Both the position numbers and the translations under genes were made by a program. Under the pieces are notes generated by a model. The model searched no databases. It worked only from the letters and a program-made list of their open reading frames with translations, and was not told the origin of the DNA. Below, piece by piece: positions 50,754 through 59,659 of a stretch of DNA of 62,048 nucleotides; positions within the stretch are counted from its first letter, which is position 1, and every line of letters starts with the position of its first letter. Origin of the DNA: Alphaproteobacteria bacterium (GTDB lineage: Bacteria; Pseudomonadota; Alphaproteobacteria; Paracaedibacterales; CAITNM01); NCBI GenBank assembly GCA_947487955.1, contig CANKYV010000006.1, positions 1 to 62,048 on the forward strand, in the 5' to 3' direction.

Positions 50754-52024
50754 GCCTGTTTAAAACAAAATCGCAGAGTATACCCTCAGAAACTTTTGCT
50801 GCTCTTGATATTGGCTCAAGCAAGGTCTGCTGTGCTATTGCAAAAATGAACCGCGATATCATTCCTGAAAAAGGAGTTACTGTTAAAATTTTGGGGGTAG
50901 CTTCTCATGCAGCAAAAGGCATTCGCGGCGCTTCTATTATTAACTTAGAAGAACTTGAAGACTCAATCTTAAATGGTATTCATTCAGCAGAACAACTTGC
51001 AAAGCAAACTATTCATAACGTATACGTTAATCTTCCAGCAGAAGCACTACAATCACATTTTATTACCACAAAAATCTCTCTTTATGGACAACCAGTAAAA
51101 GAATCACACCTTCAAAAAGCTTTAGATGTCAGCAGAGATCAAAGCATTGGCATTGCTAGGAAAATTATTCATATTTTTCCAATTTCATACGATATAGATG
51201 ACAGTACTAATATTCAAGATCCAAAAGGAATGCTAGGCGACACTCTCACAACAAGGCTACATGTAATAACATCTCCATCTAACCTTATTGCAAATCTAAG
51301 CACGTGCCTTGGAAGATGCCACTTAGACGTGAATGCTTTTGTAGCAGGCCCTTATGCTGCTGCACTTGCTTGCCTGACTGAAGATGAAAAAGAAATGGGT
51401 GTGACGTTACTTGATATTGGTAGTCACAGTATTTCCATAATGAGTTTTTATAATGGCAATCCTATCTATCTGGGGTGCTTACCTATGGGCGGAAACCATA
51501 TTACTCATGATATTGCACAAGGGTTAAACACAAATCTTAGCCAAGCTGAGCGCCTTAAAACTTTATACGGCAGCTTATTTGGCGCAATTGATGATCGAGA
51601 GACAATTTTAGTGACTCAACTTGGAGATGATAATACAACTTTTGCTAATCCTGTCTCTAAAAGCTTTTTAATGCATATCATTAAAGCAAGAGCCGAAGAA
51701 ATTATTGAAGCGATTGAGCGAATGCTTACTTCACAGCCTATTGATCCAATAGCACTGCAGCGATTTGTAATTACTGGAGGATCTAGCCAATTGCAAGGCT
51801 TTCGCGATGTTATGCAGTCTCACCTTAATAAAATTGTACGTGTGGCAACACCTCAAGGATTACAAGGAATTGGTGATGTTATTCATACTCCAGCATTTTC
51901 ATTATGTGCAGGGCTTTTACAATATGCACTGCGTGATCATCAAGGATTACAAATAAACAATGCCTTAGGAAAACAAAAAAGTATTGTAATGCGAGCTTGG
52001 AACTGGGTTCGTAACCATGTATAG
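50750..52024 (+). CDS. ftsA: Cell division protein FtsA
   Basis: LDIGSSKV, GG.HITHDI, AERLK and TGGSSQL. Confidence 0.93.
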   Translation: MSLFKTKSQSIPSETFAALDIGSSKVCCAIAKMNRDIIPEKGVTVKILGVASHAAKGIRGASIINLEELEDSILNGIHSAEQLAKQTIHNVYVNLPAEALQSHFITTKISLYGQPVKESHLQKALDVSRDQSIGIARKIIHIFPISYDIDDSTNIQDPKGMLGDTLTTRLHVITSPSNLIANLSTCLGRCHLDVNAFVAGPYAAALACLTEDEKEMGVTLLDIGSHSISIMSFYNGNPIYLGCLPMGGNHITHDIAQGLNTNLSQAERLKTLYGSLFGAIDDRETILVTQLGDDNTTFANPVSKSFLMHIIKARAEEIIEAIERMLTSQPIDPIALQRFVITGGSSQLQGFRDVMQSHLNKIVRVATPQGLQGIGDVIHTPAFSLCAGLLQYALRDHQGLQINNALGKQKSIVMRAWNWVRNHV

Positions 52025-52029
52025 ATCAA

Positions 52030-52179
52030 ATGAACGATAAATCAAAAATTCAATTAGAAAAGCAAAAACGGCTTGAAAAAGCATTACGTGAAAATTTACG
52101 CAAACGCAAACTTCAGCAACGCGAAAGAGAAGATAAAAAGAGCCAAGACTCAGAACAAAAGAAGCCAGAAGAAGCGTAA
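52030..52179 (+). CDS. Small basic protein (49 aa), not in the ORF track
   Basis: MNDKSKIQLEKQKRLEKALRENLRKRKLQQR...; the RL..ALRENL..RK.Q motif resembles a small alphaproteobacterial hypothetical protein. Confidence 0.65.
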   Translation: MNDKSKIQLEKQKRLEKALRENLRKRKLQQREREDKKSQDSEQKKPEEA

Positions 52180-52181
52180 AT

Positions 52182-52883
52182 TTATTGACTCATCATTGAG
52201 GTAAATTTTGAAACAGCATGTTCAGTCGTTTGCGCATTTAATTTTTTGCGGATGTTAGCTAAATGAAAGGCTGCAGTAGATCCAGAAATATTTAAGTTGT
52301 GACTTACTACTTTAATAGTTAATCCTTGCGCTTTTTGAGTAAGAAGTTCAATTTCACGGTCTGTTAAACACTCCAACGCTTGACTATCTTTTATAGTCGC
52401 TATCTTATTTGCACAAACGTTTGCCACTAAAGAAAGGGTATATAAAACTTCTGGGTGTAAAAATGCCTGATTCAGAACTGTTGTAAAACCGTGAAAAGTA
52501 GCATGAGGAATCAAAGGAATGGTAATTCCAGATTTTATACCAAAATCAAATGATTCTTCCATTAAAGTTTGCTGTATTGGCAAAAGATTATCAAAACCGT
52601 CAACGCTCCATTCAAATGGAACCGCTACTTTCTTTAGTGTACTGAACACAGGGTCACACAAATAATATCGTTCTTTTGTATAACGTTTTTCCCATTCTTT
52701 TGAGTACGTGTTGTGCACACAAAAAGATTCCGTAATTTTCTTCTTGCCTGAAAACACAGCAAGTGCAAACTGTTCAACATTAAAGTCATTACAAATGTTC
52801 TGAAAAATTTCAAAAACACCCTCATCAGACTGTGTAATGCTATTTATTTGCTCAATCGCAGCATTTATTCGCTTATTCAGCAT
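52182..52883 (-). CDS. luxR: LuxR-family AHL-responsive transcriptional regulator (full length)
   Basis: Autoinducer-binding residues W, Y, DP, W, G (YSKEWEKRY...DPV...PFEW...GIKSG) and C-terminal HTH (LTDREIELL...G...FHLANIRKKL). Confidence 0.93.
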   Translation of the reverse strand: MLNKRINAAIEQINSITQSDEGVFEIFQNICNDFNVEQFALAVFSGKKKITESFCVHNTYSKEWEKRYTKERYYLCDPVFSTLKKVAVPFEWSVDGFDNLLPIQQTLMEESFDFGIKSGITIPLIPHATFHGFTTVLNQAFLHPEVLYTLSLVANVCANKIATIKDSQALECLTDREIELLTQKAQGLTIKVVSHNLNISGSTAAFHLANIRKKLNAQTTEHAVSKFTSMMSQ

Positions 52884-52976
52884 TTTTAATCCTTTATCTT
52901 ACAACTAGTACTAATTTTAAAAAAACTACTATAAGAAAATATTGCTAAGCTTTTATCGCTCCATACAAAAAAAATG

Positions 52977-53534
52977 TCAATCAGGTCTTCTTGAAAAATT
53001 TCGTTTGTCTTGCAAGGATATAATTTTGTTTGAGCAAACATTACCCACCAGAGAAAGCGTATACAAAACATCATGGTGTAATGATGATTGATTGAGCACG
53101 GTCACAAAACCATGAAAAGTAGCATAAGGAATCAAAGGAATTGTAATGCCAGATTTTATACCAAAATCAAATGATTCTTCCATTAAGGTTTGTTGTGTTG
53201 GCAAGAGACCATCAAAACTTTTAGTATCCCATTCAAAAGGAACAGCAACTTTCCGCAATGAACTAAAAACAGGATCGCATAAATGATATTGTTTCTCTTT
53301 ATAATGCTGTATCCACTCTTTTGAGTAAGTATTGTATATAGAAAATGATTCTGTGATATCTTTTCTACCTGAAAAGATTGCTAATGCAAATTTTTCAAAA
53401 TTTAAATCTAGGCAAATACCTTTAAACACAGCAAACACATCTTCTTCAAAATATTTCACAGCATCTATTCTCTCTAATGCGCTTTTTATTTTCTTATCAG
53501 CTAGCAGTTTTGTACCAGAGATCATTTCACTCAC
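52977..53534 (-). CDS. LuxR paralog with autoinducer-binding domain only (no HTH)
   Basis: Highly similar to the neighbouring luxR (38-bp identical block at 52528 and 53149) but stops just before the HTH. Confidence 0.85.
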   Translation of the reverse strand: MSEMISGTKLLADKKIKSALERIDAVKYFEEDVFAVFKGICLDLNFEKFALAIFSGRKDITESFSIYNTYSKEWIQHYKEKQYHLCDPVFSSLRKVAVPFEWDTKSFDGLLPTQQTLMEESFDFGIKSGITIPLIPYATFHGFVTVLNQSSLHHDVLYTLSLVGNVCSNKIISLQDKRNFSRRPD

Positions 53535-53592
53535 CTCTCACATAAGTACATTATGATTATCGGTAATCTAAAACGATTTTTAGGTTTTCTAA

Positions 53593-53612
53593 ACCTGTTA
53601 GATTATACAGGT
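53593..53612. promoter_or_regulatory. lux box
   Basis: ACCTGT-TAGATTAT-ACAGGT has the same arms as the Vibrio fischeri lux box (ACCTGT-N8-ACAGGT); 59 bp upstream of the truncated luxR start. Confidence 0.85.
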
Positions 53613-53666
53613 AAAATGTTTTTAATTTGATGCTAACAAGAGTTGCACCAGTTTTTTCTAACATCA

Positions 53667-53798
53667 TATAGCCAGACTCATATAAATTGAGCACATAAAT
53701 TTAGATTGCTCGCAAAGACGTTAAATACTTAATTTTTGTCTTCGCGAGGAGCATAAGCGACGTGGCGATCTTATAATTAAATTGTAGTTCTGGCTATA
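53667..53798. mobile_element. MITE-like element with 10-bp terminal inverted repeats enclosing REP/RPE-like sequence
   Basis: TATAGCCAGA...TCTGGCTATA ends; internal GTCTTCGCGAGGAGC..GCGACGTGGCGATCT and AGATTGCTCGCAAAGAC. Confidence 0.55.
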
Positions 53799-53815
53799 CT
53801 CTAGGCTTCTAAATC

Positions 53816-53917
53816 ATCATCTTGAGCCCTTAAGAAGGCGTGAAAATCCAGTAAGTAATTTCAATGTTGAAATAATAAAACTGGACCCTCACGAGAGCTA
53901 TGCTCCCTCAGGGTGAC
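53816..53917. repeat. Nested imperfect palindrome (REP/REPIN-like)
   Basis: ATCATCTTGAG/CTCAGGGTGAC outer arms and GTGAAAATCCAGT/ACTGGACCCTCAC inner arms. Confidence 0.55.
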
Positions 53918-54081
53918 GAGTTTCTAAGCAACTTTATTCCGGACAGCAGTGCAGACACGCCAGTGACAAACTCTGCCGAGGATTTTAGGCAGAGCACGTA
54001 AATCTATTCAAAAATATTTATTGGAAAGGGATCAAGAAACAAATGCAAACTCATTCCCCGTATTTTTTTTATAAGCAAGTC

Positions 54082-54267
54082 TTACTGAAGCTCTTCCTTA
54101 AAAAGCTCATCCATCATTTTACTTTGAGCATCTAAAATTCTTATTTCTTTCAAAACTATTTCTGTTTTTTGAAGTTCGTTTATATTCATTTTCTTCATCC
54201 CCTTACTCTGCTGACTATCTTCAGTTTTTTGCTGACTATTTTCGATATTTTGCACTGCATCCACCAT
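54082..54267 (-). CDS. Small hypothetical protein (61 aa)
   Basis: Strong RBS (AAAAGGAGA) upstream; internal SQQ duplication. Confidence 0.6.
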   Translation of the reverse strand: MVDAVQNIENSQQKTEDSQQSKGMKKMNINELQKTEIVLKEIRILDAQSKMMDELFKEELQ

Positions 54268-54360
54268 GGACTTTTTTCTCCTTTTGATTCCAATAACCTA
54301 TTGATATCAAGTATTTTTATAATTTTTATCCAATAAAAAATTGTTATTTATACTTATACT

Positions 54361-54885
54361 CTAATTCGAATAAGATAGGAAATAATTTTTTTGTCTTACA
54401 AATTGCAAAAATTCTACCCCCAGTTTAGTTAAACAAATTTTTCCAGCTTGTACTTGAATAAAATTTGAATTTTTTAAAAAATTAAGCCATGTAAAAAATG
54501 CTGGCATATTTTTATGAGCAGTTGAAACATTTTTTGCAAATATCTGGTAGATATCTTTCTCAGAAAAAGCAACTCCGTAATGAAATTCAAGGTATTCTAA
54601 TAATTTAATATGACTTCTAGAAACACGCTTATACGTATTTTCATAATAAGCCACTTTCTGCAATACGCATTCTTTATCTCCAGTCTTGCCATTTAGAGAA
54701 ACAGCCTTTAAATGCGGACTGACTAAATTTATCTTGTTAGCGTTGGCTTTTTTTTCATTGAACTGCACCTGCATTTTGCATACCAGAGGCCAAGCAATCT
54801 GCGTTATACAATAGAAGCAAGCTATAACAACACATCCACCTGCAATAAAACGTAGCAAGAAAATTTTCAAGGTTTTTGCCATCAT
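54361..54885 (-). CDS. Membrane-anchored protein with a possible C-terminal winged-helix
   Basis: N-terminal TM; C-terminal WLNFLKNSNFI...ICLTKLGVEFL; lux box upstream. Confidence 0.7.
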   Translation of the reverse strand: MMAKTLKIFLLRFIAGGCVVIACFYCITQIAWPLVCKMQVQFNEKKANANKINLVSPHLKAVSLNGKTGDKECVLQKVAYYENTYKRVSRSHIKLLEYLEFHYGVAFSEKDIYQIFAKNVSTAHKNMPAFFTWLNFLKNSNFIQVQAGKICLTKLGVEFLQFVRQKNYFLSYSN

Positions 54886-54942
54886 TCATCTCCGTTTCTA
54901 AAGTTCCGTGATGAGTTTTAGCTTGAATTGACTAATATTTAA

Positions 54943-54962
54943 ACCTGTTACTTTATACAGTT
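54943..54962. promoter_or_regulatory. lux box
   Basis: ACCTGT-TACTTTAT-ACAGTT; 58 bp upstream of the 54885 start. Confidence 0.8.
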
Positions 54963-54978
54963 ATTTCTAGAATTATAG

Positions 54979-55602
54979 CTAACCTTGACCTTGTAAAATA
55001 TAAACAGGTTCGTTGGCAGGAAGATTTATTTTATCTAATAGCTTAGAATATGACTCGGCTAGCGGTGAATATTCCGTTACGTGTATTTCTTCATTATTAA
55101 CAACGCTACGAGCTAAAAGTGATGTTGAAAAAAACTGGGAAAGAATCCTCGCTGGAGAGGGATAAGAAAGTGTCACAAAGCTTTTAATCTCTGCGTCTAA
55201 ACCAAACAAAACTGAAGCCGCTAATATTCTACAGCACACATTCTTTGCATCTTCTTTTGTATAACCTTCAGCAAAATCGTAGTCAACAGCCATACGACTC
55301 GCTTCCCAATGCTGCGCGTTCTTATAGTCTTTTAAATTTGATAATACAAAATCAAAAGGACCATCAAACATACAAGGGTTATTCATAGGAATATAACGCT
55401 GACACCCCCTAACAATGTTATTTTTGTCCTTAAAAATTAAATAATATGTATTATTTTCATCATACTCATCTTTTTCCATACCATCTTCACTGTTAACCTG
55501 CCACTTCAATTTTTCAAAAAATACCTTATGACGAAGCCTGTACATTGCATCTAGATCATCGCGGTGTGTAGAATACTCATTGGGTGTAATTAGATAAACC
55601 AT
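54979..55602 (-). CDS. luxI: Acyl-homoserine-lactone synthase
   Basis: YRLRHKVF..KLKW, EKDEYD, GCQRY.P and WEASR signatures. Confidence 0.95.
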   Translation of the reverse strand: MVYLITPNEYSTHRDDLDAMYRLRHKVFFEKLKWQVNSEDGMEKDEYDENNTYYLIFKDKNNIVRGCQRYIPMNNPCMFDGPFDFVLSNLKDYKNAQHWEASRMAVDYDFAEGYTKEDAKNVCCRILAASVLFGLDAEIKSFVTLSYPSPARILSQFFSTSLLARSVVNNEEIHVTEYSPLAESYSKLLDKINLPANEPVYILQGQG

Positions 55603-55658
55603 AAAAATACCTGTTATCGTTAGATGAGCTATATTTAGTGATAGTTATTTGTAATTTC

Positions 55659-55678
55659 AACTGTTTAAATAAATAGGA
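55659..55678. promoter_or_regulatory. Degenerate lux box upstream of luxI
   Basis: AACTGT-TTAAATAA-ATAGGA; 57 bp upstream of the luxI ATG, matching the spacing of the other two boxes. Confidence 0.55.
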
Positions 55679-55842
55679 AAAAACAAAATAAACATTTTTT
55701 ACACTATAAAATATATAAAATTGAACTAAATAATTTTAAAAAAAATATAATAAAATAAATTACGAAAATATTAACACTAAAGATATAAGAATTTTTTTAC
55801 TTTTTTAGAAAATCTATATAATCAACTAAAAAATTTTTAACT

Positions 55843-55862
55843 ACCTGTATAATTATACAGTT
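55843..55862. promoter_or_regulatory. lux box (distal)
   Basis: ACCTGT-ATAATTAT-ACAGTT, with a perfect 16-bp palindromic core CTGTATAATTATACAG. Confidence 0.78.
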
Positions 55863-55925
55863 CAGATCTGCTTATGGGGTATAATTAAACAGAAGGCTAA
55901 AAACTTAAGATGCATTCTTAAAATT

Positions 55926-56738
55926 TTAGCGCCAGTGGCGGCCGTGCCAACCTTCTCTACGCCCCCAGCCTCCTCCAAGCCAAATGCCAGGACCACCCCA
56001 ATAAGGATAACCATAATAAGGCGCACGATGTTCTTCTATAATAATCGGTTGAACAGGTTGCACAGGAGGACCATAGGCTGGAGGAACTTGTTTAACGCTT
56101 GCTGCTGGTGTTGCTACGGAAGCTGATTTCTCATGTTTCGCTGCGTGATGGATATTTTTTGCCCGATCAATCACACCTTGTAAAAATGCCCCAACCTCAC
56201 TGGTTGGATCTTTGATAGTTATATCAACAGTAATCTTTATTGATTTACCTTTTTCTTTATCACCTGGCCAACGATAGGTGTACTCAAAAGCATGACCATT
56301 CCAATGACCCTTCTCTAATAATAGCCTTTCACCACTTTTAAAATATCCCATTTCTGTTTCGTCATTTTTAGACTTTTCTCTAGCGTCGCTTTCCCCATCA
56401 ATCTCATTTGCCCAACACAATGCAATGTGTTTTTCATCTTCATGCCGTTCTTCAGGTGTTAAGCGAATTTTTATCGAAGTCCAAGGACCATCAAATGTTA
56501 ATTCTTCATTTTTTACAAGCTGAATAATTTCATCTTTGCCTAATTCATATCCTGGACATAATGCCCAAGTGATAATTTTTTCATCAGATAAAGTTCTTAA
56601 TTTTTCAAGGTCATAACTTTCTACTTTTTTGACGGCTTCTGCATGTGCTGACTCATTTTGCATGGGATCTCCGCCAGCAAAAGCAAACACACAAAAGCAA
56701 GTAAATAGAAATAAATTAAGAATTTTCATATTAAACAA
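55926..56738 (-). CDS. Secreted hypothetical protein with Pro/Gly/Trp/Arg-rich tail
   Basis: Signal peptide ending AFA; C-terminal PYYGYPYWGGPGIWLGGGWGRR. Confidence 0.7.
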   Translation of the reverse strand: MFNMKILNLFLFTCFCVFAFAGGDPMQNESAHAEAVKKVESYDLEKLRTLSDEKIITWALCPGYELGKDEIIQLVKNEELTFDGPWTSIKIRLTPEERHEDEKHIALCWANEIDGESDAREKSKNDETEMGYFKSGERLLLEKGHWNGHAFEYTYRWPGDKEKGKSIKITVDITIKDPTSEVGAFLQGVIDRAKNIHHAAKHEKSASVATPAASVKQVPPAYGPPVQPVQPIIIEEHRAPYYGYPYWGGPGIWLGGGWGRREGWHGRHWR

Positions 56739-56785
56739 TATTTATTATATAGTTATATATATGTTAACATTGGCATTACTAATAA

Positions 56786-57214
56786 TTAATTAATAAAGAC
56801 TCCTGTACAATATGTTCCCCAAAAACCTATAGCCCACGCAACCACAAATGGCAATTTTTGCGTTTGTGTAGTTTTAAAAATAACAACAAGAACACCAGCC
56901 GTAATCATGCAATAAACAGGCAAAAAGTTAATAGCAAAACACCCTGCACCAAAACTAAAAAGCACAATATCAACCAGCTGAATGCTATTTTTTCTAAAGT
57001 ATCGATATCCCCATAAAAAACAAAAAATCCCTAAAACATGAAAAGGATAGTGAAGGTTTAAAGTTAAAGCGATTAGAGTTGCAAGAATAGTTCCTACATT
57101 CAACAATCGCTTTTTCCAGTCTTGCCATGCAAGAAGAACGGTCAACGGGAGAAGTAAAAATAAAAAAGGAAACACATAACAAATACCAAATACTGAAAAG
57201 CTGATATTATTCAT
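56786..57214 (-). CDS. Membrane protein, possible degenerate A24 prepilin peptidase
   Basis: Multi-TM; AWQDWKKRLL, IQLVDIVL and LPFV resemble the D.., GxGD and PF motifs. Confidence 0.45.
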   Translation of the reverse strand: MNNISFSVFGICYVFPFLFLLLPLTVLLAWQDWKKRLLNVGTILATLIALTLNLHYPFHVLGIFCFLWGYRYFRKNSIQLVDIVLFSFGAGCFAINFLPVYCMITAGVLVVIFKTTQTQKLPFVVAWAIGFWGTYCTGVFIN

Positions 57215-57274
57215 AGTACCATGTCTTTCGAAGAAAAAGCTGAAGTATGCTACCAGACCAAAAGTCTAGATAGA

Positions 57275-57469
57275 TCAATCATTTTCTTTATTTTTACGCA
57301 AATCAGTTAGCATTACCGCTAATCTATCCGATAATTTCGACTTCACAGCTTTTTTAATTTCATCTGAGAAGTTTATCCAATTTTGTACTTCATACGCATT
57401 ACGTCCACAGCCAATACAAACCTTATCAGCGTTAAGCACACAAATTCTTACGCAGGGAGATTTTTCCAA
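57275..57469 (-). CDS. DUF1289-family Cys-rich protein
   Basis: SPCVRIC...CIGCGR...EV..W. Confidence 0.85.
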   Translation of the reverse strand: MEKSPCVRICVLNADKVCIGCGRNAYEVQNWINFSDEIKKAVKSKLSDRLAVMLTDLRKNKEND

Positions 57470-58098
57470 CTTAAACCCTTCCTTTCTTGTAAAATGTCAA
57501 TAATTTGGCGGTGAATAACCTTTGGGTGAGAATCTGCTTGCATCACTACGCAACGGCTAGGATTATCTTTAGCAATTTCTAAAAATCCAGCTCTTATTCG
57601 CTTATGAAATTCCATATCCATTGCTTCAAAGCGCCCTTCAACAACTACATTACCTTCCATACGGGTTGTTGCACGCTTAATCCCTTCATACACATCAAGA
57701 TCAAATACAAAGGTGATGTCTGGCTCGATATCACCAACAACGTAGTTATATAATAATTGCAAAAATTCTCGATTAACTCCTCTACCGTACCCTTGATAAG
57801 CAACTGTTGAGTCCGCAAATCTGTCACACAAAACCCAACTACCATTATCAAGAGCCGGCTTAATTGTATTTTGCCAATGATCAGCACGAGCCGCATACAT
57901 TAACAAAACCTCGCTCATGTTTGACCAACGATCTACAGATCCTGTTACAAGCAAATTTCGAATAATCTCAGCCCCTGGGCTTCCGCCTGGTTCTCGAGTT
58001 AAAACAACATCAACGTCATTTTTTTTTAAAATATCAGCCAAGATCAAAGCTTGCGTGCTTTTTCCTGTACCTTCTCCGCCTTCAAAAGTAATAAACAT
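57448..58098 (-). CDS. tmk: Thymidylate kinase
   Basis: FITFEGGEGTGKSTQ, TREPGG and CDRFADST.AYQG. Confidence 0.96.
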   Translation of the reverse strand: MFITFEGGEGTGKSTQALILADILKKNDVDVVLTREPGGSPGAEIIRNLLVTGSVDRWSNMSEVLLMYAARADHWQNTIKPALDNGSWVLCDRFADSTVAYQGYGRGVNREFLQLLYNYVVGDIEPDITFVFDLDVYEGIKRATTRMEGNVVVEGRFEAMDMEFHKRIRAGFLEIAKDNPSRCVVMQADSHPKVIHRQIIDILQERKGLSWKNLPA

Positions 58099-58241
58099 AA
58101 CCTCTCCACCCTATTAACTGTATAGATTTTACTTATAATTTTCCAGGTGAACTTAAGGATAAAAATAAAAATTTTCCGTTAACTATCTCTTAGGTATTTG
58201 CATGGCAGAGTTGAATGAGACAAAAAACTAACGAGGACTTA

Positions 58242-58400
58242 ATGCTACAATTTATTACTATTCTAGGCATTTCAACTGTTTTATCTATTGCGGCTTACAA
58301 AATTCAACACGAAGAAATACAAGAAAGTAAAAAACTAATGCTAAATTCAGATATCACTGCCTCTGAATTAGCTCAATTATGCTCTTTCGCAACCGACTGA
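58242..58400 (+). CDS. Possible small membrane-anchored protein
   Basis: GAGG RBS before ATG 58242 and a hydrophobic N-terminus; overlaps the corC-like 3' end. Confidence 0.4.
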   Translation: MLQFITILGISTVLSIAAYKIQHEEIQESKKLMLNSDITASELAQLCSFATD

Positions 58401-59659
58401 GAAAGAGGGGGAGTCACTTTGACTAACGTAATTTGGTTGCGTTGACGCCTTAATATTTCAAAGCGGAAGCCTCTCCAATTAAATATTTGACCAACTGTTG
58501 GAAGCACTCGAAATTGAATAATTAAAAGCCCAGCAAGAGTTGCAGCAACATCGTTAGGCAATTCCCAGTCAAATTGACGATTCAAATCACGAATTGTTAC
58601 GTTACCATAAATAACAAAACTTCCATCTAACTGAGGACGTACACCACGCACATTTACGTCATGCTCGTCAGCAATGTCCCCCACAATTTCTTCTAAAACA
58701 TCCTCTAGCGTTACAATTCCCATAAGCGCTCCATACTCATCAACAACCAAAGCAAAGTGCTCGCGTCGTTGACGAAAAGCGTGAAGCTGTTCTAAAAGAT
58801 CAGTACTTTCAGGAGTAAACCAAGGTTTATGCGCAATATCGACAATATTTAGATCATCCAATGATCCAGAATGGGCACGCACCGCACGCAATAGTGCTTT
58901 TGTATTAATAATACCCACAATATTATCAGGATTGCCTTGCCATAAAGGCAAGCGCGTAAAAGGGCATGCTAGAACTTGATCAACAATTTCAGTTGGTGAA
59001 TCATCTGCATTAACCATTGTAACATTTTGGCGATGCACCATAATTTCAGAAACTTGCACCGTTCCTAAGTCCAAAATACTTTTTAGCATAGCCTTTTCAT
59101 GAGGCGTATCCTGACCAGGCCCATCGTGCATATCAATAGCGCCACGCAGCTCTTCCATTTTAGCGTGATGATCCTCTGCTTTTACCTTAAAACCAAACAC
59201 TCTTAATAAAGAGGTGACAAAAAAGGACAAAGCTTTGTTAATAGGTAAAAACAAATTGTAGCTAAAACGAATTGCAGGAGCTGCAAACATTAAAAACCGG
59301 ATGGTGTCTTGTATTGCAAGCGTTTTGGGTAACATTTCCGCAAACACCAAAACAATTGCACCTGTCAAAACAGAAGCAATAACAGCAGCAATAGTTGAAT
59401 TATCCCCCACCAGATCAAAGGATAAACTAGCTAAAACCGAAGCTATAGCAGCATTTAAGAGTGTATTGTAAGCTAAAATTGAGCTCACAACCATGCTCAG
59501 GTGCTGCTGCAAATCACGAATAGTTATAGCTGATTTATTACCAGCTTTTGCAAGTTGATGCAGCTTTGGACGAGAAGCAAATGTAATTGCTGTTTCAGAA
59601 GCAGAAAAGAAAGAGGAGATCAATAACAAGACGACGGAAAAGATACAAAGAGTAATCAT
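58373..59659 (-). CDS. HlyC/CorC (CNNM) family protein: DUF21, CBS pair, CorC
   Basis: FFSASETA, FAEMLPKT and VVDEYG...GIVTLEDVLEEIVG. Confidence 0.92.
   Translation of the reverse strand: MITLCIFSVVLLLISSFFSASETAITFASRPKLHQLAKAGNKSAITIRDLQQHLSMVVSSILAYNTLLNAAIASVLASLSFDLVGDNSTIAAVIASVLTGAIVLVFAEMLPKTLAIQDTIRFLMFAAPAIRFSYNLFLPINKALSFFVTSLLRVFGFKVKAEDHHAKMEELRGAIDMHDGPGQDTPHEKAMLKSILDLGTVQVSEIMVHRQNVTMVNADDSPTEIVDQVLACPFTRLPLWQGNPDNIVGIINTKALLRAVRAHSGSLDDLNIVDIAHKPWFTPESTDLLEQLHAFRQRREHFALVVDEYGALMGIVTLEDVLEEIVGDIADEHDVNVRGVRPQLDGSFVIYGNVTIRDLNRQFDWELPNDVAATLAGLLIIQFRVLPTVGQIFNWRGFRFEILRRQRNQITLVKVTPPLSQSVAKEHN

Follow-up and report, generated by a model that had tools for sequence, protein, structure and literature searches.

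An acyl-homoserine lactone quorum-sensing locus with lux-type boxes, a distal luxI box and a conserved LuxR paralogue lacking the helix-turn-helix in a small alphaproteobacterial genome

We analysed a 62,048-nt stretch of DNA (the window), which is contig C6 of a 1.55-Mb alphaproteobacterial genome assembly (48 contigs, 37.4% G+C), for the lux-type boxes, candidate operators of LuxR-type receptors, around its luxI and luxR genes. The window holds the core acyl-homoserine lactone (AHL) quorum-sensing locus, of the ordinary LuxI/LuxR type, of this small uncultured genome. On the minus strand the genes follow in the order luxI, a 174-aa gene, a 61-aa open reading frame (ORF), a small repeat element, a luxR paralogue without helix-turn-helix (HTH) and the full-length luxR1, and ftsA and tmk flank the locus at opposite ends. 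The main genes and boxes are listed below; scores in bits are those of the position weight matrix (PWM) introduced further on.

54979–55602, minus strand: luxI, AHL synthase, 207 aa, with an Autoind_synth match (PF00765, 4.4e-28)
52182–52883, minus strand: luxR1, full-length LuxR-type receptor, 233 aa, with Autoind_bind (1.1e-19) and GerE (3.8e-11) matches
52977–53534, minus strand: HTH-less LuxR paralogue, counted as 185 aa from GTG 53534, although ATG 53525 is the likelier start, with an Autoind_bind match (4.2e-21)
54361–54885, minus strand: 174-aa gene of unassigned family, with a hydrophobic N-terminal stretch and possibly a winged-helix-like C-terminus
53593–53612, no strand assigned: lux-type box A, ACCTGTTAGATTATACAGGT, with perfect outer arms (0 mismatches, 27.0 bits), upstream of the HTH-less luxR/luxR1 pair
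54943–54962, no strand assigned: lux-type box B, ACCTGTTACTTTATACAGTT (1 mismatch, 19.9 bits), separated by 57 nt from the ATG of the 174-aa gene that it precedes
55843–55862, no strand assigned: distal luxI box D, ACCTGTATAATTATACAGTT, the top-scoring box of the window (1 mismatch, 30.5 bits), 240 nt before the luxI ATG
55659–55678, no strand assigned: box C, AACTGTTTAAATAAATAGGA (3 mismatches, 10.7 bits), 56 nt before the luxI ATG

Boxes A, B and C are the three 20-mers that a preliminary description of this DNA had named as lux boxes, and their sequences and coordinates (53593, 54943 and 55659) were given there exactly; box D went unreported. In the following, G000 denotes this genome within a genus set of 14 genomes, and G010 and G005 are the luxI-bearing congeners (luxI was found in 2 of 13). 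The lineages compared at the locus are these three, and four extra metagenomic luxI loci (72–79% identity) re-sample G010 and G005.

The product of luxI carries the autoinducer synthase domain of a LuxI-type AHL synthase, and this was the one Autoind_synth match genome-wide, giving a single luxI; its matches to the NCBIfam TraI-type models fell under the model cut-offs. The genome holds six Autoind_bind matches, that is, LuxR-type ligand-binding domains. The 233-aa LuxR1 combines Autoind_bind with a GerE-type HTH, as a LuxR-type receptor does, and an alignment judged by eye against the residue list in PMC11655674 showed that it retains W, Y, D, P, W and G at the pocket positions. In both G010 and G005 the locus likewise lies between tmk and ftsA, with luxI identities of 79 and 72%, respectively, and luxR1 orthologues of 235 aa (76% identity) and 234 aa (71%). 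Within the genus set, Autoind_bind matches below E 1e-10 were confined to G000, G010 and G005.

To score the boxes, we counted mismatches to the pattern ACCTGT-N8-ACAGGT and compared the counts with the number expected and with 100 shuffles. At two mismatches or fewer, the window contains three sites, 53593 (0 mismatches), 54943 (1) and 55843 (1), against 1.26 expected, and at least three were obtained in 10 of the 100 shuffles. Boxes A, B and D show dyad symmetry in a CT-N12-AG frame. At three mismatches or fewer, there were 10 matches against 15.3 expected, and 93 of the 100 shuffles gave at least 10; box C keeps CT-N12-AG despite its three mismatches and by sequence does not rise above chance. 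Of the three lux boxes named in the preliminary description, those at 53593 and 54943 belong to the family described next.

Across the 1.55-Mb genome, we found seven sites with no more than one mismatch (consensus ACCTGTATAATTATACAGGT), which have the interior TATAATTATA, itself AT-rich, in common. A PWM was built from these seven sites, with 10 simulated genomes as the background. At 18 bits or more, it returned eight genome sites, whereas the simulated genomes averaged 0.2 and never exceeded 1; the eighth, C24:14079, was not among the seeds, and all eight are intergenic on the ORF maps. At 10 bits or more, the level of box C, 20 genome hits were obtained against 13.8 in the simulated genomes. 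Three of the seven sites fall within 2.3 kb at the luxI/luxR locus, and a third luxR has two further sites beside it, one with 2 mismatches. The genome-wide PWM scan recommended earlier as a means of defining the regulon therefore worked.

The distribution of the pattern within the genus followed that of luxI in two of the three luxI-bearing genomes: sites with up to one mismatch numbered seven in G000 and eight in G010, against one each for the reversed-pattern control, and the eleven luxI-negative congeners had 0–2 sites each (controls, 0–5). For boxes A, B and D, an above-chance frequency thus goes together with the presence of LuxR and LuxI. Box A is kept in G010 as ACCTGTATAAACTAACAGGT, 63 nt from the ATG and with TAGGTT as the aligned hexamer, and in G005 as GACTGTATAATTTAACAGGT, 56 nt from a TTG and with TAGTAT. 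Box B, which in G000 lies 16 nt after the luxI stop, has no mismatch in G005, where 57 nt separate it from the orthologue of the 174-aa gene; the G010 copy, at 56 nt, is degenerate and scores 8.6 bits. Around box A, box B and the distal box of luxI, all retained in G010 and G005, the flanks have diverged. The earlier view that these are lux-type boxes of a readable regulon was borne out by the family of seven sites and its enrichment in G000 and G010. Boxes A and B are genuine members of a genome-wide lux-type family, to which a LuxR would be predicted to bind.

It could be argued that such palindromes are not LuxR sites but RNA hairpins or terminators, or else operators of an unrelated regulator such as an XRE-type HTH protein. 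A generic scan indeed marked 53593–53612 as terminator-like on the plus strand (6-bp stem, 8-nt loop and T-rich tail), and one member of the box family lies inside a repeat adjoining an XRE-type gene. However, the ‘loop’ TATAATTATA is conserved between sites, which a hairpin would not need, and the boxes precede genes by a fixed distance rather than following them. Moreover, they co-occur with luxI and luxR across the 14 congeners and cluster at luxI/luxR loci, and the number of terminator-like sites equals the shuffle expectation (3 versus 2.3). We consider this alternative highly improbable.

The sequences thus point to an ACCTGT-type regulon of about eight sites, whose candidate targets, distances from box to start codon and −10-like hexamers are as follows.

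Box A: HTH-less luxR/luxR1 pair; 58 nt (GTG) or 67 nt (ATG); putative −10-like TAGATT at 53565–53570, minus strand, 22 nt after the box
Box B: 174-aa gene; 57 nt; putative −10-like TAAAAC at 54915–54920, minus strand, 22 nt after the box
Box D: luxI; 240 nt; tentative −10-like TATATA of a possible distal promoter at 55815–55820, minus strand, 22 nt after the box, AT-rich and weakly conserved
C31 and C35 sites: two DksA/TraR-type zinc-finger paralogues; 57 nt in each case; −10-like TATGAT and TATTAT at the two genes
C24:14079: DUF2795 gene followed by a phospholipase-D-like (PLD) gene; 51 nt; −10-like TATTAA
C24:19144 (2-mismatch box): third luxR; 63 nt (GTG); −10-like TAGCTT
C24:20050: PEBP-family gene; at least 257 nt
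C1:68980: repeat-associated site adjoining an XRE-type HTH gene; 59 nt to a doubtful short ORF

In promoters oriented to their genes, the −10-like hexamers start 22–23 nt after the box. The TAGATT hexamer pointed out in the preliminary description was found again on the minus strand (53570–53565), and the box B hexamer aligns with TAAATA in G010 and TATATA in G005, preceded by an invariant GC. With the hexamer taken as positions −12 to −7, the box centre would lie at about −43 to −45, close to −42.5. The class-II-like placement suggested earlier is retained as the predicted geometry of boxes A and B.

The preliminary description had given the distances of boxes A, B and C as 59, 58 and 57. These are coordinate differences, one more than the number of nucleotides between box end and start, and the arithmetic was right for GTG 53534, ATG 54885 and ATG 55602. 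GTG 53534, however, sits within a Shine–Dalgarno-like GAGGTGA, whereas ATG 53525 is 5 nt past the motif and aligns with the orthologue starts; with a far better ribosome-binding site and this alignment, 68 is a likelier first figure than 59. An unbiased count covered 463,762 upstream positions of 1567 ORFs with at least 100 aa; PWM hits of at least 10.5 bits within 300 nt upstream numbered 14, of which five stood at 56–58 nt; the C31 and C35 sites are paralogous promoters and hence not independent. The recurrent spacing of about 57 nt would follow from class-II-type placement combined with short leaders. It is a real property of the regulon, though inexact and not valid for every box: the shared distance described earlier for three boxes does not extend to box D, at 240 nt or, as a coordinate difference, 241. 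A generic promoter scan of this AT-rich DNA was uninformative, with 9 promoter-like sites against 15.9 expected.

Compared with the lux box of Vibrio fischeri, whose arms the ACCTGT/ACAGGT-type arms presumably resemble, the boxes described here are likewise 20-bp inverted repeats upstream of a weak −10 that overlap the −35 position and would control quorum-sensing genes. In contrast to that system, the interior here is AT-rich and conserved, the centre would fall at about −43 to −45, and the best box of the synthase gene stands 240 nt before the ATG, not at the proximal promoter. A further difference is the scale, with about eight sites in a 1.55-Mb genome that has six LuxR-type ligand-binding domains. 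The 20-bp inverted repeat centred at −42.5 is the lux box as given in PMC3376562 and PMC4471428.

Upstream of luxI, the distal box is conserved at 240 nt (G000), 246 nt (G010) and 244 nt (G005) before the gene; G010 has a second box, of an ACCTAT type, at 277 nt, 31 bp further up than the 246-nt box. The distal boxes of G000 and G005 differ solely at the symmetric positions 5 and 16, which is the pattern expected of a dimer-binding site. Closer to the gene, we noted two further elements on the minus strand.

55632–55660, minus strand: putative sigma-70-like proximal luxI promoter, TTGAAA (55660–55655), 17 nt, TAAATA (55637–55632)
55627–55646, minus strand: conserved palindrome CTAT-N8-ATAG, AACTATCACTAAATATAGCT, spanning the putative −10, 24 nt before the luxI ATG

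The architecture of the proximal promoter recurs as TTGAAT-17-TATTTA in G010 and TTGAAA-17-TAGATA in G005; the generic promoter scan skipped it because its rule accepts only second hexamers that end in T. The right arm of box C overlaps the −35 TTGAAA. The preliminary description had placed the strongest box at the luxR pair and the weakest at luxI, and had derived from this an order of feedback. This ranking fell, because luxI has the best-scoring box of the window (55843), conserved in three lineages, and the order of feedback built on it has no basis either. Affinities are not readable from sequence. The corrected wiring for luxI is a strong distal box together with a conserved basal promoter, and not merely the weakest box.

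What box C represents was weighed between two readings. It might be a functional low-affinity class-II lux box that works together with the distal box, by cooperative binding or by looping over the ~185 bp between them, in which case luxI would respond last or only at high levels of LuxR-AHL. Its position fits this: with 56 nt to the ATG and TAAATA as the −10-like hexamer at +22, it has the geometry of the strong boxes. The aligned sequence in G005, CCCTATATATAAAAGCAGTT, keeps the CT-N12-AG core as G000 does, and, although many indels lie between boxes C and D, the distance between their centres, measured by hand, is 184, 186 and 186 bp across the three lineages. In addition, G010, without the weak box, has two distal boxes instead. 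On the other hand, the sequence of a site with 3 mismatches and 10.7 bits does not stand out from chance, the G010 lineage (TTTTGTTTATTATATTAGTT) has degenerate arms on both sides and has lost the left one, and the conserved bases of the right arm are also explained by the −35 TTGAAA, in a comparison that rests on three lineages. We therefore hold a functional box C to be a doubtful, if possible, reading, and a degenerate remnant to be more likely.

The palindrome AACTATCACTAAATATAGCT is the most conserved block of the luxI upstream intergenic region; it is nearly invariant and, by a loose pattern, lies 24, 28 and 26 nt before luxI in the three lineages. EsaR-type regulators act as repressors, and the palindrome could thus be the operator of an EsaR-like LuxR-type repressor of luxI, for which LuxR2, a further full-length LuxR of this genome, would be the candidate. 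Its conservation and its CTAT-N8-ATAG symmetry are consistent with such a role, as is the reality of a second family of palindromes, ACCTAT-N8-ATAGGT, with seven exact sites against 0.18 expected and enrichment only in the luxI-positive congeners. However, the palindrome has 2 mismatches to the outer arms of that family, and conservation would be expected anyway for a −10 and start region. Repression of luxI through this element therefore appears unlikely.

The seven exact sites of the ACCTAT type in G000 are all intergenic (C1:71012, C1:85071, C2:27855, C5:60966, C14:1078, C18:19124 and C19:2338), and of the non-homopolymer hexamer dyads with an 8-nt gap, this pattern was one of the most strongly over-represented. 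The genes next to these sites are the following.

DUF4410 gene, 60 nt downstream of its site
PLD-like gene, 68 nt downstream of its site
Sel1-repeat genes, downstream of sites
HD-domain gene, 88 nt downstream of its site, with the full-length luxR2 on the other side at 286 nt
Receiver-domain gene, 51 nt downstream of its site

Exact sites numbered seven in G000, eight in G010 and two in G005, and 0–1 in the luxI-negative congeners, in which the site, where present, is always the same GC-rich one. The LuxR2 gene is syntenic in the three genomes, with the ACCTAT-type box 286, 215 and 169 nt upstream, and its recognition helix reads SQATITFH, compared with SxSTAAFH in LuxR1, LuxR3 and LuxR4. In G010, two full-length LuxR genes stand beside two box families, which suggests one family per receptor. 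The ACCTAT-type family is thus possibly the operator set of LuxR2 and a second LuxR regulon. Networks of the las/rhl type contain several LuxRs with distinct box specificities and CT-N12-AG boxes. Similarly, the ACCTGT- and ACCTAT-type dyads share the CT-N12-AG frame and adjoin LuxR paralogues with differing recognition helices; unlike in those networks, the pairing of receptor and box proposed here is a prediction from sequence. Other dyads over-represented in G000 were ACCACG-N7-CGTGGT (9 versus 0.024 expected) and TTTGCA-N8-TGCAAA (7 versus 0.17).

The 185-aa protein encoded beside luxR1 gave no GerE match, and so lacks the C-terminal GerE-type HTH of a LuxR-type receptor. It ends just after the ligand-binding domain, as do its orthologues (173 aa in G010, and 190 and 172 aa in G005, where the gene is duplicated; 45–68% identity), and there is no room for a remnant of the HTH because the gap to luxR1 is only 93 nt. 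A recent truncation or pseudogene was ruled out, since the end point is conserved in three lineages. The ‘truncated luxR’ of the preliminary description thus does lack the HTH but is not a fresh truncation: it encodes a conserved HTH-less LuxR paralogue, to be filed neither as a transcription factor nor as a recent pseudogene.

Two such proteins are described in the literature. According to PMC13043044, TrlR of Agrobacterium tumefaciens forms inactive heterodimers with TraR. PMC11655674 describes CerN of Cereibacter sphaeroides, which is without HTH, is encoded beside cerM-cerR-cerI and, together with AHL, hinders CerM in binding DNA; that genome is given there as having a single LuxI and six LuxR homologues. 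The likeness to TrlR and CerN lies in the HTH-less LuxR paralogue itself, and by this analogy the protein probably modulates LuxR1, via heterodimerization or ligand competition, and may be an anti-activator. In contrast to TrlR and CerN, the gene here leads what appears to be a unit of two genes preceded by a lux box with perfect arms, and would thus be induced by quorum sensing; three lineages conserve it, and G005 has it in duplicate. In one RNA contig, luxR1 is joined to the HTH-less luxR (52527/53149), skipping 621 nt at a 38-nt stretch common to the paralogues; this junction is most simply an assembly artefact between paralogues.

From the motifs, their enrichment, positions and conservation, and the gene families, we infer LuxR binding, transcription starts, the direction of regulation and a role for the HTH-less protein as follows. 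The dyads at 53593 and 54943 would be operators for a LuxR-type dimer, each abutting or replacing the −35, with a −10-like hexamer 22–23 nt on and a short leader. The luxI gene would be served mainly by the strong distal box at 55843, giving positive feedback, while the conserved sigma-70-like proximal promoter would allow basal signal synthesis; box C would be no more than a degenerate remnant of low affinity, placed as a class-II site of this proximal promoter. The HTH-less LuxR, which keeps the ligand-pocket residues, would modulate LuxR1 as TrlR and CerN do their partners, and the operon behind box A would consequently feed back both positively and negatively. As a whole, this combination of LuxR-type operators, a distal luxI box with a basal promoter and an HTH-less modulator is likely to be the best explanation of the locus. 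No sequencing run contained half or more of the query words. In the contigs of one freshwater metatranscriptome run, parts of four genes (luxR1, the HTH-less luxR, the 174-aa gene and luxI) are present at 100% identity, which is compatible with transcription in nature.

Several points weigh against this explanation. First, the PWM statistics are partly circular, the seeds being the sites scored, and the ACCTGT type is not in excess in G005 (3 versus 3 in the control), although that genome has luxI and numerous LuxR genes. Second, box D lies ~228 bp upstream of the presumed proximal start, which is unusual for a LuxR activator, and its −10 is poorly conserved and displaced in G010 by a 10-nt insertion. 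Third, box C stands exactly at the regulon spacing, with a chance of ~1.5e-4 per 5-nt window at a hit rate of 3e-5 per position; given this non-random position, calling it a remnant may undervalue it. Fourth, the C1:68980 site might be bound by another protein. Finally, the metatranscriptome contigs cover coding parts only, and carry-over of DNA is possible; their intergenic gaps are not evidence.

The C1:68980 box belongs to a conserved repeated unit with similar flanks and an XRE-type HTH gene ~450 nt away, of which G010 has three copies (C6:32706, C21:7356 and C31:6726). The unit may be a mobile or plasmid-like element under quorum-sensing control, or its box an operator of the XRE protein. 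As to the DksA-like genes, the box-bearing paralogue of G005 has its box 58 nt before a GTG, and the housekeeping DksA-like gene, present in all 14 genus genomes, has no box upstream. The housekeeping dksA-like genes of the genus share a conserved upstream motif, TTTTCACGTGG / TTTTACGTAG.

A sample of 61 genomes of the order contained 11, G000 included, with a luxI homologue at E below 1e-40, and AHL signalling thus appears common in this order of small genomes. The luxI genes often occur in tandem pairs (G058, G056, G031 and G016), and G005 has 11 Autoind_bind matches. At the luxI loci of other families (9 copies in 6 genomes), no CTAT-type box was seen upstream in G058, G053, G020 and G056, and ACCTAT-type boxes were found 257 and 104 nt upstream in G025 and 226 nt upstream in G031. 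The boxes occur in two of the six genomes, and the motif is therefore not universal in the order. One metagenome-assembled genome of the same order, G020, is labelled Holosporales. A 2025 review of the Holosporales contains no occurrence of quorum, LuxR, LuxI, autoinducer or acyl-homoserine, and in the library searched we found no paper combining Holosporales, quorum sensing and LuxR.

We tentatively propose that this small-genome lineage, in an order shared with the Holosporales-labelled genome (a group described as obligately host-associated), runs an AHL network of two receptors and two operators, in which LuxR1-type receptors would act on ACCTGT boxes and LuxR2 on ACCTAT boxes, jointly controlling ~15 promoters of accessory genes. 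The feedback site of luxI would lie ~185 bp upstream of the basal promoter and switch its box type among species by symmetric arm changes (G000 versus G005, with both types in G010), and a self-induced HTH-less LuxR would serve as a brake. The mechanism is textbook; what is new is the host lineage and the details of the network, namely, the HTH-less LuxR, the two box families and the distal box with a basal promoter. Given the Pfam matches of the regulon (phospholipase-D-like, Sel1-repeat, PEBP and two DksA/TraR-type), some products could act on a host. Should these bacteria prove to live within hosts, a test for AHL signalling in that setting would be worthwhile. For an unculturable organism, the genome scan provides a short candidate list of LuxR-controlled promoters, and the luxI-negative congeners are natural controls.

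With respect to the remaining parts of the locus, the 174-aa protein gave no Pfam or NCBIfam match, and an Atlas structure search returned ArsR-type/DUF7347 folds at a TM score of about 0.5, a weak lead. Its orthologues also come after luxI (176 aa in G010 and 170 aa in G005). An Rfam scan of 51000–58500 with E up to 1 gave no match. On the other side of luxI, a 270-aa gene (55926–56738, minus strand) stands between luxI and a 142-aa gene in G000, and is absent at that position in G010. Its product is hydrophobic at the N-terminus and rich in Gly, Pro and Trp at the C-terminus, and belongs to no Pfam or NCBIfam family. The small repeat at 53668–53800 has two further copies on contig C4 (83–85% identity), and in DNA contigs of two aquatic metagenome runs it showed a depth 3–4x higher and several loose ends.

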